A stretch of DNA of 64,000 nt from Escherichia coli O157:H7 (GTDB lineage Bacteria > Pseudomonadota > Gammaproteobacteria > Enterobacterales > Enterobacteriaceae), in the NCBI RefSeq assembly GCF_013167455.1, contig NZ_CP038328.1. One strand, written 5' to 3'. The position numbers and the translations under genes are program-made. The notes under the pieces are model-generated. The model saw only the letters and a program-made list of their open reading frames with translations, was not told the DNA's origin and did not search any database. Below are positions 20,239 through 27,635 of this stretch, in pieces. Positions within the stretch are counted from its first letter, which is position 1, and every line of letters begins with the position of its first letter.

Positions 20239-20270
20239 AAAAAAACCAACCTTTACGGTTGGTTTTTTTG
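20239..20270. terminator. hairpin with A/T runs abutting attL (likely the ancestral proL terminator and yejO terminator)
   Basis: AAAAAACCAACC-ttta-cGGTTGGTTTTTTT sits 5 bp from the left direct repeat. Confidence 0.75.
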
Positions 20271-20275
20271 GGATT

Positions 20276-20292
20276 TTTGGTCGGCACGAGAG
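20276..20292. repeat. attL core (direct repeat of the tRNA-Pro 3' end)
   Basis: TTTGGTCGGCACGAGAG is identical to 29850-29866. Confidence 0.9.
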
Positions 20293-20353
20293 TAGTTTAA
20301 TTGAGTATGTAACTACATGATTTTAAATAATATGCTTGATTCAACTTTTAAAC

Positions 20354-20377
20354 CGTATAACTAAACGTATAACTAAA
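20354..20377 (+). promoter_or_regulatory. two tandem 12-bp arm-type repeats CGTATAACTAAA
   Basis: The same 12-mer occurs four more times at 29665-29720 next to the integrase gene. Typical arrangement for integrase arm-binding sites. Confidence 0.65.
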
Positions 20378-20559
20378 ATCATTTGCTGAAAAAGTGTACA
20401 ATTTAAATGCGAGTTTTCCTGTGGTAAAAGCTCCAACCGTAACGATGTTCGTTATGGTTGCCTTGATGGTCTGCGTGGTCATTATGACCATTCAGGATTT
20501 GAAGGGTGACGCTTCCGACTTCCTCAAATTGAGGTTTCCGAAAATATCAGCGGGTTAGG

Positions 20560-22311: not shown

Positions 22312-22800
22312 TCAGTGTTTTAAGTCTGTTGGTGGCTTAGGGATGGGGAACCGATTTGAGTAGACACTAGCGGCATTGAGTTTTTTAACCTCTTTTTTCC
22401 CAATGCTGCCGATCTTGCGGTGGGTGAACTGGGCCAGCTTAAACGCGGCATCTAAAGCCAGTTTTGGATCTGTGTCCATGTTGTCAATCAGTATCCTGCC
22501 CATTGCTTTGATGGGGTCGGGTAGGCCGTTATCCATCATCTCAATGGTGTTAATTGATGCCCGTTCCGGTGTAACTTTTTCGGTAACTTTCTTTGTAACT
22601 TTTTTCGGTTTTGTAACCTGAAAAGTTACATCAGAAGTTACAGCCTTAAGATACTTTTTCACCTCAGGATCGTTGGATAGCTGCCAGCCTTTAACCCTTG
22701 CGGTCTTTTCGCTGTATCCAGCATGTATAGCGGCTTCCGTGGGATTTGCGCCCCTTGATAACGCATCAGCAAACCGCTTTTTTTTGGTCGTTAATGCCAT
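22312..22800 (-). CDS. terminase small subunit-like protein (Terminase_2-type N-terminal HTH)
   Basis: I chose the internal start MALTTKKKRFADALSRGANPTEAAIHAGYSEKTARVKGWQL (162 aa) with GAGG upstream. The N-terminus fits the TerS HTH pattern L..K...F......N...AA..AGYS..TA. Contains a KKVT repeat tract. Confidence 0.75.
   Translation of the reverse strand: MALTTKKKRFADALSRGANPTEAAIHAGYSEKTARVKGWQLSNDPEVKKYLKAVTSDVTFQVTKPKKVTKKVTEKVTPERASINTIEMMDNGLPDPIKAMGRILIDNMDTDPKLALDAAFKLAQFTHRKIGSIGKKEVKKLNAASVYSNRFPIPKPPTDLKH
22571..22641. repeat. array of GTAACTTT motifs (four direct, two inverted) inside the TerS-like gene
   Basis: GTAAC at 22571, 22583, 22595 (12-bp phasing) and 22613. Inverted GTTAC at 22625 and 22637. 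Confidence 0.8.
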
Positions 22801-22824
22801 GCAAAAACCTCGTTTTGAGGGGGT

Positions 22825-22845
22825 GTAACTTTTCGTGTAACTTTT
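22825..22845. repeat. two more GTAACTTTT motifs, 12 bp apart, in the 5' UTR of the TerS-like gene
   Basis: GTGTAACTTTT at 22823 and 22835. Noncoding, 25-45 bp upstream of the ATG at 22800. Confidence 0.8.
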
Positions 22846-22927
22846 TTGAAAAGCAAAATTTTCTACGAATGAGACGGGGGGCGGTGTCCAGGGCGATCGA
22901 CTTTCCGGCCGGAACACTCCCCCCCTG

Positions 22928-23702: not shown

Positions 23703-23931
23703 CTTCACCTGTTCACCTTTTGATATTTTATCTTTTAATTCATAATGTTAAGGGGTGAACAGTTTCACAAAAACTATTCACCAACTATTCACCACTGTTC
23801 ACCCTTGAAGCTCAATAAACAATCAAAAAGGTGAACAGTGAATAGTTTGGTGAACAGTTCATAAATAACTGTTCACCCTATAATATACTGATATAAAAGA
23901 TATTTATGACAGGGTGAACAGTGGTGAACAG
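23703..23931. promoter_or_regulatory. replication origin: about 11 iterons CTGTTCACC/GGTGAACAG flanking an AT-rich core
   Basis: Iterons at 23709, 23754, 23774, 23785, 23795, 23830, 23849, 23869, 23913 and 23923, plus degenerate copies. AT-rich stretch at 23880-23910. Immediately downstream of the primase-helicase gene. Confidence 0.8.
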
Positions 23932-23944
23932 TTATTCCATAAGT

Positions 23945-25762
23945 TTAATTTTTGCTATCGTCATTAGTGACCGATACACATGACGGCATCCAGTCTTCTG
24001 ATTCCTCCGTCAGTGTCACGTTTGAACGCAAACCGTGCTTCGTTTTCCGTTTCATATACTCCCTGCCATATTCCGCCATTGCCCCCGGCATATCTTTACC
24101 GAAGCGCGTCAGTGTTACAGGTTTACCGAATCCGTGTGCCCTCATATATGCCAGATAGGCGTGATAAAGATACCTGCGCGGACTGAACGGAATAATTTCG
24201 GCATTACCCACTAACAGACCATCACACATTACCGACGACATGAGATAGCCGCAGAAGTCCACCAGCGAATCGCCCTCGCGTTTTATCACCAGAGCTTCTT
24301 CTGATTTCTGCTGCTCATACAGCAGGCGTTTAGCTTCGTCCTGGTCAGAAAAACGAGTAAGCAGGTGGCGAATCACAACCGCCAGCTCTCCTTCTATTTT
24401 TTCTGCCAGCATGGGGTCGCGTTCGTTTTCCGGTACAACCTCCGAAAAATTGAATATCACCCGACGACGTGAAATCCCCCCGCTGCGGTCACTGAATGAC
24501 ATGGCGTTATTGTTCACCGCCAACACTACCGCCTGAATGCGTGTTGAGTAGGGGGCTTTATGCTTCGGGTCGATTGCCACCTTGTCACCGCCTGTAATGG
24601 CCTTAATTCCTGCGCCATCACCAGCGTAACGGGTCATATCCGGCATGATAATCAGCGAAAAGCCAACCACTAACGCGCGTTCCCTGGCATCTTCCAGCGC
24701 CTTCATGCTTGCCGATACCGTGTTGGCCTTACCCGCCAGCATGGTGCAAATCTCCGCCATCACGCTTTTACCACTTCCCCCTGGACCTGTTACCTCAATG
24801 AATAACTGCCAGTCGTACCGGTTCGCCAGCACCATGAATAATGCAGCCAGTACGCGATCCGCCTTGCGGTCATTCTCAGCCACCGAACGGCGTAACCACT
24901 TCCAGAAATTCGGCGCATGTGTTGCCAGCGTTTCCCCCTCTGCTGGTGGGCTGAAAGGTAATTCACTGGCAATTAACAACCAGTCGTTTTTGTTATGCTC
25001 CCGAAAATCGCCTGTCCGGGTATCAAAAACACCGTTACTGAATCCAATCAGGTTACGGGCTGTATTCCCCATTACAGGCAAACTTAACTTCATGGTATCG
25101 ACCGCCGATTTAATGGCGTTCTGCGAATAGCTGATCTCCGCATCAATGAAAATCTGTGCCATAGCTCGCTGTAATTCTTTATCCTGTACTGGCTCCCATA
25201 CAACGCCGTTGTAATAGTGAACAGTGTCAGAGTCAGCATGAATCGCCAGTTCACCGCCATAATGTGCCAGGAGAACTTCGCCGCGTTGACTTGCTCCCAT
25301 CTGGTTAAGCGCCAGTGATGAAGCGTTATCGTCTTTTACCCGCTCTTTTTTCTTTACAGGCAGTTCAACTACCTTTTTCTTTTCCGCCTGCTCTGCCCGT
25401 TCACGTTCCAGATATTCGCGCCAGTTCTCCCGTTTCTGGCTGTGCATTCCTTCAGGGTAATAATCAGCATCCCTGACACCTGCCGCTGCCAGTTTCTGCC
25501 CGATGGTATTAACAAGCCCCGAACGCAATAACCCCGCCTGATAGAGACGCACGCGATAGCGTCCGTCCGGTACGATTTGCAGGTTGTCCAGTTCGGCAAG
25601 TTGTTGCTCTCCAAGCCAGACAGGTGGCACGTTATCGCCAGCCAGTCGCCCGTCCTGTTCCTGCCACTGCTTCGCATGTGCCCACGCATCACTACCCGCA
25701 AAAATGATGACTTCCGTCATTTTGTCACGTGGCTGGTGTTTTAAATTTGGCGCTTTTTTCAT
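23945..25762 (-). CDS. P4 alpha-like / D5-type SF3 primase-helicase (pri-rep)
   Basis: 605 aa from the ATG at 25762 (GGAGAG upstream; ATGA overlap with the upstream ORF stop). Walker A GPGGSGKS, D5_N-like region and P4-family primase C-terminal pattern. Confidence 0.8.
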   Translation of the reverse strand: MKKAPNLKHQPRDKMTEVIIFAGSDAWAHAKQWQEQDGRLAGDNVPPVWLGEQQLAELDNLQIVPDGRYRVRLYQAGLLRSGLVNTIGQKLAAAGVRDADYYPEGMHSQKRENWREYLERERAEQAEKKKVVELPVKKKERVKDDNASSLALNQMGASQRGEVLLAHYGGELAIHADSDTVHYYNGVVWEPVQDKELQRAMAQIFIDAEISYSQNAIKSAVDTMKLSLPVMGNTARNLIGFSNGVFDTRTGDFREHNKNDWLLIASELPFSPPAEGETLATHAPNFWKWLRRSVAENDRKADRVLAALFMVLANRYDWQLFIEVTGPGGSGKSVMAEICTMLAGKANTVSASMKALEDARERALVVGFSLIIMPDMTRYAGDGAGIKAITGGDKVAIDPKHKAPYSTRIQAVVLAVNNNAMSFSDRSGGISRRRVIFNFSEVVPENERDPMLAEKIEGELAVVIRHLLTRFSDQDEAKRLLYEQQKSEEALVIKREGDSLVDFCGYLMSSVMCDGLLVGNAEIIPFSPRRYLYHAYLAYMRAHGFGKPVTLTRFGKDMPGAMAEYGREYMKRKTKHGLRSNVTLTEESEDWMPSCVSVTNDDSKN

Positions 25763-26058
25763 TTCTGCTCTCTCCACGCGGCAATCATGTTTTTCAGTTC
25801 CTGTAGTTTTTTATCAACATCCATACATGGCACATGGTTATTTCTGGAAGGCGGGATTTCCCGCCTGAATCTGCTAATAAAGATCTCCACGTTCAGCGAA
25901 CTATGAAATGAATAGCCATCACGAATAAAATACACACGGTCAAACATCAGTTCTTTTACCGTTACTCTGTTACCGTTCTTATCCAGATAAATAGCGCCGG
26001 GGATAATTTTTGGGTGTGCATAACCGCTGGCAGTCAAGCCAGATAAATATGTTCTCAT
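25759..26058 (-). CDS. hypothetical protein (99 aa), DUF4222-like pattern
   Basis: AIYLDKNGNRVTVKELMFDRVYFIRDGY fits, from memory, the Y.D..G..V.V....V.F.R.GY pattern of small enterobacterial prophage proteins. Translationally coupled to pri-rep. Confidence 0.55.
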   Translation of the reverse strand: MRTYLSGLTASGYAHPKIIPGAIYLDKNGNRVTVKELMFDRVYFIRDGYSFHSSLNVEIFISRFRREIPPSRNNHVPCMDVDKKLQELKNMIAAWREQK

Positions 26059-26064
26059 GATTAT

Positions 26065-26385
26065 TTATCCCCGATTTGAATCAGTATTCGCTTTCTTTAT
26101 GGCATTTAATGCATCTGTGGCATTTTCAATGGTGCACCGTAACGAAATATTAAACTGTCCAAGCATTGCCAGTAACAAACCGATATTACCCATATCAATG
26201 CGCATGACCTTTTCGTCATAGTCCTCATTTTCTGACGCATGCCACATCAGGCTACCAATTGACGCAACAGCCATTGATATATTGTCAGTAGCCCCATCCG
26301 CAGCGGAATAAACCTTTTTAGCAATATCATGCTCACAGTTAAAATGCGGATTAATCAGGTACTGGTAATTTGACATATCAGGCAT
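26065..26385 (-). CDS. hypothetical protein (106 aa)
   Basis: I chose the internal start MPDMSNYQ. Its ATG overlaps the stop of the Icd-like ORF (ATGCCTGA). Occupies the position P4 gives to cnr, between the immunity region and alpha. This is positional only. Confidence 0.55.
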   Translation of the reverse strand: MPDMSNYQYLINPHFNCEHDIAKKVYSAADGATDNISMAVASIGSLMWHASENEDYDEKVMRIDMGNIGLLLAMLGQFNISLRCTIENATDALNAIKKANTDSNRG

Positions 26386-26566
26386 GGCACACCCCCTGAC
26401 GAATACGGGCGGCGAATACAGCAACACAACCGGACGGGCAACGGCTACGCGCTTCGCGTTCCGTCCAGGCGGTTACGTGGATGATTTGATGTTCTGACGC
26501 GCCAAAGATGATAAAGCGCCAGAGAAAGGCGGTTTGAGAATGTACAAGGGTAGGGATAGTAGCCAT
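26378..26566 (-). CDS. Icd-like (host cell division inhibitor family) small protein, 62 aa
   Basis: Start MATIPTLVHSQTAFLWRF...TEREARSR with a strong SD GAGGAGG. The sequence pattern is recalled from Icd-like proteins annotated in P4-like islands. Confidence 0.65.
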   Translation of the reverse strand: MATIPTLVHSQTAFLWRFIIFGASEHQIIHVTAWTEREARSRCPSGCVAVFAARIRQGVCHA

Positions 26567-26935
26567 GTTGGCAGCCTCCTCAGTGTGGTTAAGATAACCG
26601 CCACCGGAAACGCCAATTTCGCTGGTGGCGGACTGTACAGGGTTGGCGTAACCGGACACTGAAGAAACCGGCGCGGATTGCTCCGCCCCCGTACAGCCCA
26701 CCATTGATAAGGTGTGACTATGCGGCACAAAAAAACACGCGGGGCGCGTGTTATGCGCTTCAGTTTTGCCCAGGACGCCAATCCCGGCACCCGTTTTATG
26801 AGGTGCGCGGGAATCATAGCTATTTTCGACACTGGCGATCAACTGGTTTTTTTCTCCGATATTCAGGGCCAGAAAACGCCACACAAAGGCCGTTTGTGTG
26901 TGTACAAGGTGTGGTATATGATTTACGGCAACCAT
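26378..26935 (-). CDS. upstream Icd-like paralog ORF (start 26935) that stays in frame through the terminator, the RNA and the second Icd-like ORF
   Basis: AGGAG SD plus ATG at 26935. The N-terminus MVAVNHIPHLVHTQTAFVWRF parallels the 62-aa ORF. There is no stop until 26378. Whether the long product is made is doubtful. Confidence 0.3.
   Translation of the reverse strand: MVAVNHIPHLVHTQTAFVWRFLALNIGEKNQLIASVENSYDSRAPHKTGAGIGVLGKTEAHNTRPACFFVPHSHTLSMVGCTGAEQSAPVSSVSGYANPVQSATSEIGVSGGGYLNHTEEAANMATIPTLVHSQTAFLWRFIIFGASEHQIIHVTAWTEREARSRCPSGCVAVFAARIRQGVCHA
26623..26702 (-). ncRNA. candidate C4/CI-type antisense immunity RNA (tRNA-like, RNase P-substrate-like)
   Basis: On the minus strand, a 16-bp closing helix GGUGGGCUGUACGGGG/CCCUGUACAGUCCGCC has 3 G-U pairs that would be A-C mismatches on the other strand. 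It is followed by 3' ACCA. Inside are a GCAA-tetraloop hairpin and a 5-bp hairpin whose 12-nt loop UUUCUUCAGUGU is complementary to the downstream SD region. Confidence 0.55.
26729..26751 (-). terminator. rho-independent terminator upstream of the candidate RNA
   Basis: On the minus strand, ACACGCG-CCC-CGCGUGU followed by UUUUUUU. Confidence 0.75.
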
Positions 26936-27008
26936 AACGGCTCCTAGTTTACGTTGTTGGTTAGAAGCCCTGCGAGTGGTAACGACACTTGCGGGGCTTT
27001 GTCTTTTC
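26929..27008 (+). ncRNA. candidate cis-antisense sRNA covering the SD/start of the upstream Icd-like ORF
   Basis: Promoter-like TTGTGT-17-TATGAT at 26894-26922. A strand-specific 14-bp hairpin at 26965-26999 has 2 G-U pairs on the plus strand only and is followed by UGUCUUUUC. Confidence 0.3.
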
Positions 27009-27026
27009 ATCGATTACCTTGATAAA

Positions 27027-27108
27027 GGTGTCAGCCACTATATTAGTAACAGGTGTCAGCCACGTCAATAGTGTTTTTCCGTTTTCTTGTGTGTATACTG
27101 TCAGCCAC
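27027..27108. promoter_or_regulatory. three direct operator repeats (G)GTGTCAGCCAC
   Basis: Copies at 27027-27038, 27052-27063 and 27099-27108. Two overlap the minus-strand early promoter and one overlaps the -10/TSS of the RHH gene promoter. Confidence 0.7.
27040..27068 (-). promoter_or_regulatory. sigma70-type early promoter of the satellite (TTGACG-17-TAATAT)
   Basis: On the minus strand, -35 TTGACG (27068-27063), a 17-bp spacer and -10 TAATAT (27045-27040). Directed toward the icd-like/pri-rep operon. Confidence 0.65.
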
Positions 27109-27129
27109 CTAATAACGAGGAAATCAGAT

Positions 27130-27309
27130 ATGGCAACAAAAGCAGTTAATGCAAAATCCAAAAAGCTTGAGGCTCGAGTACCACACGCAATAGCTGATGC
27201 TGTAGAAAATTTAAAGGAAGATGGCGAAAGTACAGGGCAATTTATCGTTTCGGCACTTGAAGGCGAGATCAAACGCCGCCAGCGCCGCAAGGCCAAAGAA
27301 TCAGAATAA
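27130..27309 (+). CDS. Arc/Mnt-like ribbon-helix-helix repressor (59 aa)
   Basis: Internal start with GAGGA SD. KKLEARVPHAIADAVENLKEDGESTGQFIVSALEGEI fits the Arc-type pattern (beta-strand ..L..R.P, helix, G.S...., helix). Divergent from the early operon. Confidence 0.65.
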   Translation: MATKAVNAKSKKLEARVPHAIADAVENLKEDGESTGQFIVSALEGEIKRRQRRKAKESE

Positions 27310-27366
27310 TCACTATCAGCGCCGTGGTGTGAGGTATTACGGCGCATTGCTATGCAGGACAACACA

Positions 27367-27540
27367 ATGACCGATAAAGAATTGACCAAAACATTATCAC
27401 CGGCACGGAAAAGACGGCGCAGAAAGATAGAGCATGAATCAGAAAGATTCGCACCATGTGCTTTTGCCCTTGAGCAATTCCTTAAAGAGTACAGGGAAAA
27501 GCGCTCATTGCAGGTATGGCAACGAACTGAACCAGACTGA
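27367..27540 (+). CDS. small arginine-rich protein (57 aa), hypothetical
   Basis: I prefer the second ATG because AGGA lies 7 nt upstream. Contains SPARKRRRRKIEHESER. Co-oriented with the RHH gene and followed by a terminator. Confidence 0.45.
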   Translation: MTDKELTKTLSPARKRRRRKIEHESERFAPCAFALEQFLKEYREKRSLQVWQRTEPD

Positions 27541-27635
27541 TTGCATTGCCCACCAGCCTGATAGCGGCTATCATCCCCGTGCTTATGTTTGGGATCACAT
27601 ACACATAAGGCGCAGCGGGTTAATTGTTCAGAAAG

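Follow-up and report, generated by a model that had tools for sequence, protein, structure and literature searches.

Closest described systems

EcCICFT073 (NC_004431.1), the prototype Gram-negative phage-inducible chromosomal island (PICI), was described in 2018 as being transcribed unidirectionally, with no clear repressor; overexpression of AlpA, the published activator of Gram-negative PICIs, is alone sufficient to induce it, and the contrast between Gram-negative and Gram-positive islands was called a mystery (PMC6092414). Here we analyze a stretch of 64,000 nucleotides (hereafter, the window) from Escherichia coli O157:H7 (contig NZ_CP038328.1), in which a satellite island of ~9.6 kb, lying between attachment (att) repeats at 20269-20300 and 29843-29874, contains a gene for a 59-amino-acid (aa) protein with a predicted ribbon-helix-helix (RHH) fold, preceded by three short boxes that overlap two divergent promoters. 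Together, these make up a well-defined, uncharacterized regulatory module that was previously unrecognized in the control region of Gram-negative PICIs, the prototype included. From the layout and the comparative evidence, we consider it probable (roughly 70%) that the 59-aa protein represses the early (icd-like/primase) promoter as an RHH repressor of the immunity type and is itself autoregulated.

The most similar phage regulators are Mnt and Arc of P22, with which the module shares the RHH fold, predicted recognition of DNA by a β-ribbon, and operators overlapping promoter elements. The mnt gene, too, is divergent from the promoter to be repressed, with autoregulation being predicted here, and the likeness extends to P22 immI in that the repressed operon sometimes includes a layer of antisense RNA. 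There is, however, no significant sequence relationship with the P22 proteins, and the host element here is a satellite rather than a phage. The P22 operators are single palindromes of 17-21 bp bound by tetramers, whereas the module has three separate 11-bp boxes at intervals of 22-45 bp, direct or inverted relative to one another. The omega repressor of pSM19035 is likewise an RHH protein that binds short repeats in either orientation, but it binds contiguous 7-bp heptads cooperatively, whereas the boxes described here are 11 bp long and dispersed.

Among the satellites, the Stl/Rpr master repressors of Gram-positive PICIs (Staphylococcus aureus pathogenicity islands, SaPIs) are larger helix-turn-helix (HTH) proteins that are inactivated by helper-phage proteins. 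They resemble the present case in that a small divergent regulator lies between the integrase module and the xis/replication operon (PMC6092414), but in Gram-negative islands, activation by AlpA runs in parallel. P4 shares with the window a strong leftward early promoter followed by C4/isrK-type RNAs and a primase operon, with an AlpA/Vis-like HTH gene upstream; in contrast, neither an RHH gene nor boxes occur in P4 between vis (ORF88) and PLE, and the window island has terS, a capsid homolog and a PICI-like organization. The earlier note on this DNA stated that P4 uses only RNA immunity, which is right inasmuch as P4 lacks such a gene but omits Vis. Its other premise, that Gram-negative PICIs rely on AlpA rather than on a divergent repressor, agrees with the 2018 paper (PMC6092414), and yet the module is found in the model island of that very paper.

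The remaining relatives are the YlcI/YnfO (DUF3950) proteins of the lambdoid prophages DLP12 and Qin, which belong to the same family (NF041551) and have the same size as the 59-aa protein, although the direct similarity is weak. In E. coli K-12, DLP12 ylcI (locus L079, 6252-6446) is divergent from nohD, a terminase small subunit homolog, at a distance of ~390 bp and is not located at an early promoter. A literature search turned up no functional description of YlcI/YnfO/DUF3950, of an RHH gene or boxes in PICIs, or of an EcCICFT073 repressor; the family is mentioned in a gene-content listing in Enterobacter capsid-forming PICIs (cf-PICIs), and nothing more.

Boxes and divergent promoters in the window

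The components of the module in the window are as follows:

27028..27038, plus strand: box O1, GTGTCAGCCAC (GTG-N5-CAC), directly downstream of the leftward -10 and over the predicted leftward start (~27033)
27040..27045, minus strand: -10 hexamer TAATAT of the leftward early promoter PL (consensus scan)
27053..27063, plus strand: box O2, GTGTCAGCCAC, occupying the PL spacer and abutting or overlapping the PL -35
27063..27068, minus strand: -35 hexamer TTGACG of PL, separated from TAATAT by a 17-bp spacer (consensus scan)
27094..27099, plus strand: -10 hexamer TATACT of PR, the rightward promoter of the RHH gene, with a weak or unclear -35
27098..27108, plus strand: box O3, CTGTCAGCCAC, overlapping the PR -10 and the predicted rightward start (~27106)
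27130..27309, plus strand: gene of the 59-aa RHH-type protein of the YlcI/YnfO family, with an ATG start and the ribosome binding site (RBS) GAGGAA at 27117-27122

The core observation of the earlier note, three direct copies of a decamer, two of them extended, is borne out. A pattern search located exact copies of TGTCAGCCAC at 27029-27038, 27054-27063 and 27099-27108, all on the plus strand and inside 80 bp, the first two lengthening to GGTGTCAGCCAC (27027-27038 and 27052-27063), and found no further exact copy anywhere in the 64-kb window; by our own arithmetic, ~0.12 copies would be expected by chance on both strands. When up to one mismatch was allowed, there were 15 matches compared to 3.7 expected, a count that none of 100 shuffles reached. 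A repeat search also picked up a 22-nt pair, 27026-27047 and 27051-27072. The coordinates given for the boxes, over the spacer and start of PL and over the -10/start of PR, hold as well, and the TTGACG-17-TAATAT promoter was recovered by the consensus scan. O3 is imperfect, its first base being C rather than G, because this C and a T are shared with, and also serve, TATACT. The -35 regions of the two promoters are adjacent (27063-27068 and ~27071-27076), and the direct-repeat orientation of the boxes would make the leftward and rightward 5' leaders complementary over 10-11 nt.

Conservation of the layout and covariation of the protein with the boxes

For comparison, we collected 67 loci from other species and more from Salmonella, Klebsiella and E. 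coli; counts of layout and covariation refer to 52 non-redundant loci from Enterobacterales satellites. The three-box arrangement is kept in nearly all related loci and recurs across these 52, in other genera, with the boxes 99-112, 77 and ~32 bp ahead of the RHH start codon, the position of box 2 at 77 bp being fixed in nearly all loci. The placement of the boxes relative to both promoters is conserved along with them: a PL -35 of the form TTGAnn, which in the general layout abuts box 2, has four to six of the six consensus bases in 52/52 loci, a TAnnnT hexamer follows at 17-18 bp in 49 of them, the PR -10 is TATACT in 37, and the best -10-like hexamer begins 36 bp before the RHH start codon in 42. 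Column entropy is at its minimum at the GTG and CAC ends and the promoter hexamers, and at its maximum in the N5 cores.

The consensus box is GTG-N5-CAC, with 19 classes of core. The core is common to all three boxes of a locus and changes in concert between loci. Box 1 is inverted in many loci, including the commonest class (GTGAAATACAC) and several others, which fits a pseudo-symmetric DNA binder.

Box class is predicted by the protein. Among 55 protein positions, the best single predictors are residue 14 (adjusted mutual information, AMI, 0.79) and residue 12 (0.71), and (12,14) heads the ranking of all 1485 position pairs (AMI 0.92; adjusted Rand index, ARI, 0.95). Five-residue windows that include the predicted β-strand reach an ARI of 0.80-0.90, compared to 0.05-0.64 for windows elsewhere; given that the whole gene is equally linked to the boxes and yet only the strand tracks them, this comparison is an internal control for linkage. 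Nor do the boxes track the neighboring genes alpA, int and primase: Xenorhabdus loci have the boxes and the strand of the window, but their AlpA is undetectable with the window AlpA, and despite the shared boxes, their integrases and primases are only 20-25% and ~50% identical, respectively, to those of the window. These patterns support the view that the boxes behave as operators of the 59-aa protein.

The 59-aa YlcI/YnfO protein

The protein matches NCBIfam NF041551 (YlcI/YnfO) with 60.6 bits (cut-off 30, E 1.1e-16) as well as phrog_949 (function unknown, E 3e-23), and an identical protein is named YlcI/YnfO family by the Prokaryotic Genome Annotation Pipeline (PGAP). It has no match to any Pfam family at E values up to 1 and no sequence match in the PDB, and the Arc (PF03869) and RHH_1 profiles matched none of the 42 family members scanned.

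Structure prediction, which the earlier note had named as a check on its assignment, supports the fold. The AlphaFold2 monomer model built with 42 homologs (mean predicted local distance difference test score, pLDDT, 88) is a β-α-α fold of ~45 residues, as in the RHH (MetJ/Arc/CopG) superfamily, with residues 11-18 confidently extended and helices at 19-28 and 35-58. Between helices A and B lies G32-E33-S34-T35, which is invariant or nearly so in the 42 homologs; a G-x-S/T/N turn between the helices is typical of RHH proteins. In a profile alignment (hhalign), K12, E14 and R16 line up with the base-contacting residues of Arc, Q9, N11 and R13, but the alignment is weak, with a probability of 11.6%. 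R16 does not vary among the 52 loci and is near-invariant in alignment A1. A C-terminal toxin-binding extension is lacking, the protein ending in a basic helix only. Thus, the RHH part of the "Arc/Mnt-type RHH" assignment is supported by the predicted model, whereas membership in the Arc/Mnt family by sequence is not, the protein belonging instead to NF041551.

The family is narrow. A profile search of 1.84 billion representatives yielded only 94 matching clusters, and all matches that carry an organism name come from Enterobacterales. A recognizable phage gene was ruled out: tblastn of the protein against 50,697 phage records gave no match.

The module in EcCICFT073 and its distribution

In EcCICFT073, the family is represented by the 59-aa YlcI/YnfO gene C_RS30120, a later-added locus tag, which lies between alpA and the Icd-like gene and is transcribed in the opposite direction to int, alpA and the early genes. 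Upstream, the region reads GGTGTGGCCCAC ... GGTGTGGCCCAC-GTCAA ... TATACTGTCCCCCAC, and the strand of the protein is KSQALKARVPH. The leader hairpin and the last third of the RHH gene through a downstream 57-aa open reading frame (ORF) are almost identical in the window and EcCICFT073, whereas the two islands diverge over the operator region and over the first, N-terminal two thirds of the RHH gene, with the cores and the strand residues differing together; residues 12 and 14 are K and E in the window but A and K in EcCICFT073. Judged by these alignments, the difference amounts to a natural swap of the specificity cassette.

The module is common in E. coli: at least 701 of 5426 complete genomes contain a relative at the DNA level, one of these being in a cf-PICI-like island. 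The idea that co-resident islands always differ in specificity was given no weight: 19 of 20 pairs differ, with ~89% expected to do so by chance.

Context of the module in the island

The features surrounding the module, read leftwards from the tRNA, are these:

29852-29928: tRNA-Pro(GGG), adjoining the integrase end of the island
28392..29651, minus strand: tyrosine integrase, next to tRNA-Pro(GGG)
27689..27895, minus strand: AlpA-like HTH gene, with a weak match to PF05930; HTH/AlpA-family regulator in related records
27630..27662, plus strand: terminator-like hairpin with a T-run that would end the RHH-orf57 unit, before the convergent alpA
27367..27540, plus strand: conserved 57-aa ORF in the same orientation as the RHH gene, with an alternative start (ATG at 27352) that would extend it to 62 aa
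26964..27000, minus strand: conserved GC-rich stem-loop in the 5' leader of the leftward transcript, with compensatory changes in 7/10 predicted pairs
26730..26806, minus strand: isrK-like RNA element in the leftward leader (66 bits, gathering score 50)
26621..26708, minus strand: C4 / P4-CI-like antisense RNA (77.6 bits, gathering score 45)

An 83-aa ORF lies between the integrase and the AlpA-like gene. Beyond the leftward promoter, the minus-strand run comprises the C4/isrK RNAs, the icd-like/ash region, DUF4222, a D5-type primase (23945-25777), terS and a major-head homolog. This organization is PICI-like rather than P4-like, and the size, integrase, att sites, alpA, primase and terS/head homolog fit the definition of Gram-negative PICIs (Fillol-Salom et al. 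2018), which calls for a size of ~10-15 kb and for genes of packaging or capsid interference. The att core repeats correspond to the 3' portion of tRNA-Pro. The Rfam int-alpA RNA (RF02996) was found between int and alpA in the related islands L021, L026, L040, L045, L061, L063, L020 and L070, and was not detected in the window at the gathering score.

The plus-strand genes of the island are the RHH gene and the ORF that follows it, as the earlier note had it: among the PGAP coding sequences of the island in a related E. coli record, whose regulatory region is 100% identical, only the YlcI/YnfO gene is on the plus strand. PGAP passes over the 57-aa ORF in the closest relative of the window and annotates it in CFT073. 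Homologs of the 57-aa ORF come from E. coli and Shigella only (64-98% identity) and match phrog_21027 (function unknown); they have an invariant core, ERFAPCAFALE, and an Arg/Lys-rich N-terminus. No homolog of this ORF lies beside the RHH gene in 73 related loci. Instead, genes for TumE (PF20126) and HVO_A0114 (PF25212) are found downstream of the RHH gene in Salmonella, with an AntA gene nearby (L070, 7336-7963), and in Klebsiella loci there is no gene between the RHH gene and the convergent alpA. The 57-aa ORF is probably cargo of the PR operon, which may be a cargo slot. When read on the minus strand, the hairpin at 27630-27662 lacks a good T-run. Between alpA and the RHH gene, PGAP annotates truncated minus-strand pseudogenes in the window (27305-27674, "hypothetical") and in L076 (6084-6531, "Icd-like", FORC_069); the RHH cassette may have been inserted into a once continuous leftward unit running from alpA to icd.

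The leader stem-loop was compared with the equivalent regions of the related loci L002-L076. On the plus strand, it reads as an intrinsic terminator facing the RHH promoter, and it is followed by a second, small hairpin enclosing the RBS and the ATG start codon of the first leftward ORF (MAD.QHTQTRP...; region 26935-27000). The isrK-like element is a relative of P4 seqA (PMC10111431), so that the window has the CI/C4 RNA and the seqA-type target after the early promoter that characterize P4-like immunity. An ash-family ORF over the C4/isrK region (26378-27010, minus strand) contains the similar segments HTQTAFVWRF and HSQTAFLWRF, a likeness that probably reflects the duplicated RNA elements and not a real protein.

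The earlier note regarded a protein repressor layered on RNA immunity as a distinctive control architecture. The combination is real in the window but is not conserved: besides the window and its close relative L001, C4/isrK were detected in 2/27 other RHH loci, a Salmonella island (L070) and one other E. coli island (L076), and were not detected in EcCICFT073 or in the 25 other loci scanned. A conserved dual architecture was therefore rejected.

Other repeats lie elsewhere in the island. Immediately downstream of the primase gene, TGGTGAACAGTT occurs twice (23848-23868 and 23922-23942); the core, GGTGAACA, we take to be the reverse complement of the P4 type-1 ori repeat, and this region may be the replication origin of the island. 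A perfect 26-nt repeat, CCGTATAACTAAACGTATAACTAAAA, is located just inside both island ends (20353-20378 and 29696-29721), and these copies are probably arm-type sites of the integrase. Short repeats of the GGTGTAACTTTT type inside terS (22568-22605 and 22822-22847) encode a reiterated KVT(K/E)KVT.

Proposed mechanism

Under the repressor model, an RHH dimer would insert its N-terminal β-ribbon into the major groove of each 11-bp GTG-N5-CAC box, with residues 12 and 14 reading the variable core and R16, possibly together with the N-terminal arm, reading the constant ends. O1 and O2 bracket the PL -10, so that their occupancy would exclude RNA polymerase from the icd-like/DUF4222/primase operon and keep the replication module of the satellite silent. 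Binding to O3, over the -10/start of PR, would result in negative autoregulation, predicted to occur at a higher protein concentration. The PR operon, with its variable downstream cargo, would then be the unit expressed in the quiescent state, and the module as a whole looks like an exchangeable immunity cassette with many specificities, lying between the int-alpA and replication modules of Gram-negative PICIs and cf-PICIs.

Given that AlpA alone induces EcCICFT073, any such repression must be overridable, and induction most likely acts in this way. The simplest route, which is speculation, would be leftward transcription, driven by AlpA, that passes the 27630-27662 hairpin, continues antisense to the RHH gene and enters the early operon; the other would be an anti-repressor.

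Several observations weigh against this model. The absence of a Pfam or PDB sequence match for the protein is compounded by Foldseek, which found no significant match for the predicted model in the PDB, and the register with Arc is a weak one. All loci are genetically linked units, and the covariation was controlled only internally, against other protein positions and neighbor genes. The O1-O2 spacing varies (22, 25 or 35 bp), which argues against a fixed cooperative tetramer geometry. EcCICFT073 carries the module and is nevertheless induced by AlpA overexpression alone (PMC6092414), so that the "master switch" role suggested in the earlier note is unproven and the protein may only fine-tune. 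Even so, the conserved placement of the boxes over both promoters, together with the covariation of the cores with residues 12 and 14, makes repression of the early operon combined with autoregulation, as originally predicted, the best reading of the sequences.

Alternative explanations

The repressor model fits the conservation pattern better than any of four other explanations. Some RHH proteins, for example, AmrZ, both activate and repress, and the 59-aa protein could bind the boxes mainly as an activator or a promoter-choice factor, silencing being left to the absence of AlpA and to RNA immunity. It would then stimulate its own weak promoter from O2 (centered at ~-48) or coordinate back-to-back promoters like Mnt at Pant/Pmnt. 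The poor -35 of PR, which may need help, and the adjacency of the two -35 regions are compatible with such a role, as is the sufficiency of AlpA for induction (PMC6092414). We nonetheless regard this explanation as unlikely: the location of O1 and O2 around the PL -10 and of O3 over the PR -10/start, classical positions for occlusion, is conserved.

A second possibility is that the boxes are sites for another factor, such as AlpA, a primase or initiator binding iterons, the integrase or a helper-phage protein, the RHH gene being an unrelated neighbor. In favor of this, AlpA is the experimentally shown regulator of these islands (PMC6092414), but identical boxes accompany highly divergent AlpA, integrase and primase proteins, and it is residues 12 and 14 of the RHH protein that best predict box class. 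Furthermore, the arm-type repeats (20353-20378 and 29696-29721) and the P4-type iteron-like repeats (23848-23942) differ from the boxes in sequence and lie elsewhere. On this evidence, the involvement of another factor is quite improbable.

Still harder to sustain is the proposal that the RHH protein and the 57-aa ORF form a small toxin-antitoxin pair, in which the former would be antitoxin and autoregulator and the boxes would serve that operon only. A type II antitoxin would be expected to have a conserved cognate toxin gene in its operon, but what follows the RHH gene varies among related loci or is missing: TumE/HVO_A0114 in Salmonella, nothing in Klebsiella, and a homolog of the 57-aa ORF in none of the 73 loci. 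With homologs in E. coli and Shigella only, and none beside the RHH gene in those loci, this ORF was also rejected as a functional partner or toxin. The protein also lacks the toxin-binding extension, and two of the three boxes are on the divergent early promoter, in a conserved placement.

The least credible explanation, RNA-level pairing of box 1 with box 3 transcribed from opposite strands, like P4 seqA/seqB or the P1 C4-target, draws on the complementary leaders in the window and on the use of C4/isrK-type RNAs by the element but was rejected because box 2, with the same core, is in an untranscribed promoter spacer, the inversion of box 1 relative to box 3 in the GTGAAATACAC class and several others removes the complementarity, and no box copy or complement occurs within the C4 or isrK segments.

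Implications

The divergent RHH gene and its matched operators sit where Gram-positive islands keep Stl/Rpr, and the module is a testable candidate for the repressor that Gram-negative PICIs were thought to lack. Because it is present in EcCICFT073, the question can be addressed with existing strains and reporters. The box/residue classes also offer compact natural data on the recognition code of RHH proteins and could supply orthogonal repressor/operator pairs for engineered PICI vectors.

A bolder proposal casts the RHH protein as the global (immunity) repressor that seemed to be missing from Gram-negative PICIs and cf-PICIs, EcCICFT073 included: it would hold the replication operon silent and define at least 19 mutually non-cross-reacting groups by a two-residue/5-bp code, and induction by a helper phage, acting through AlpA, would override it or shut it off. 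We put this forward tentatively, leaning somewhat toward doubt; if it is true, the picture of Gram-negative islands as unidirectional and controlled by an activator only would need revision.
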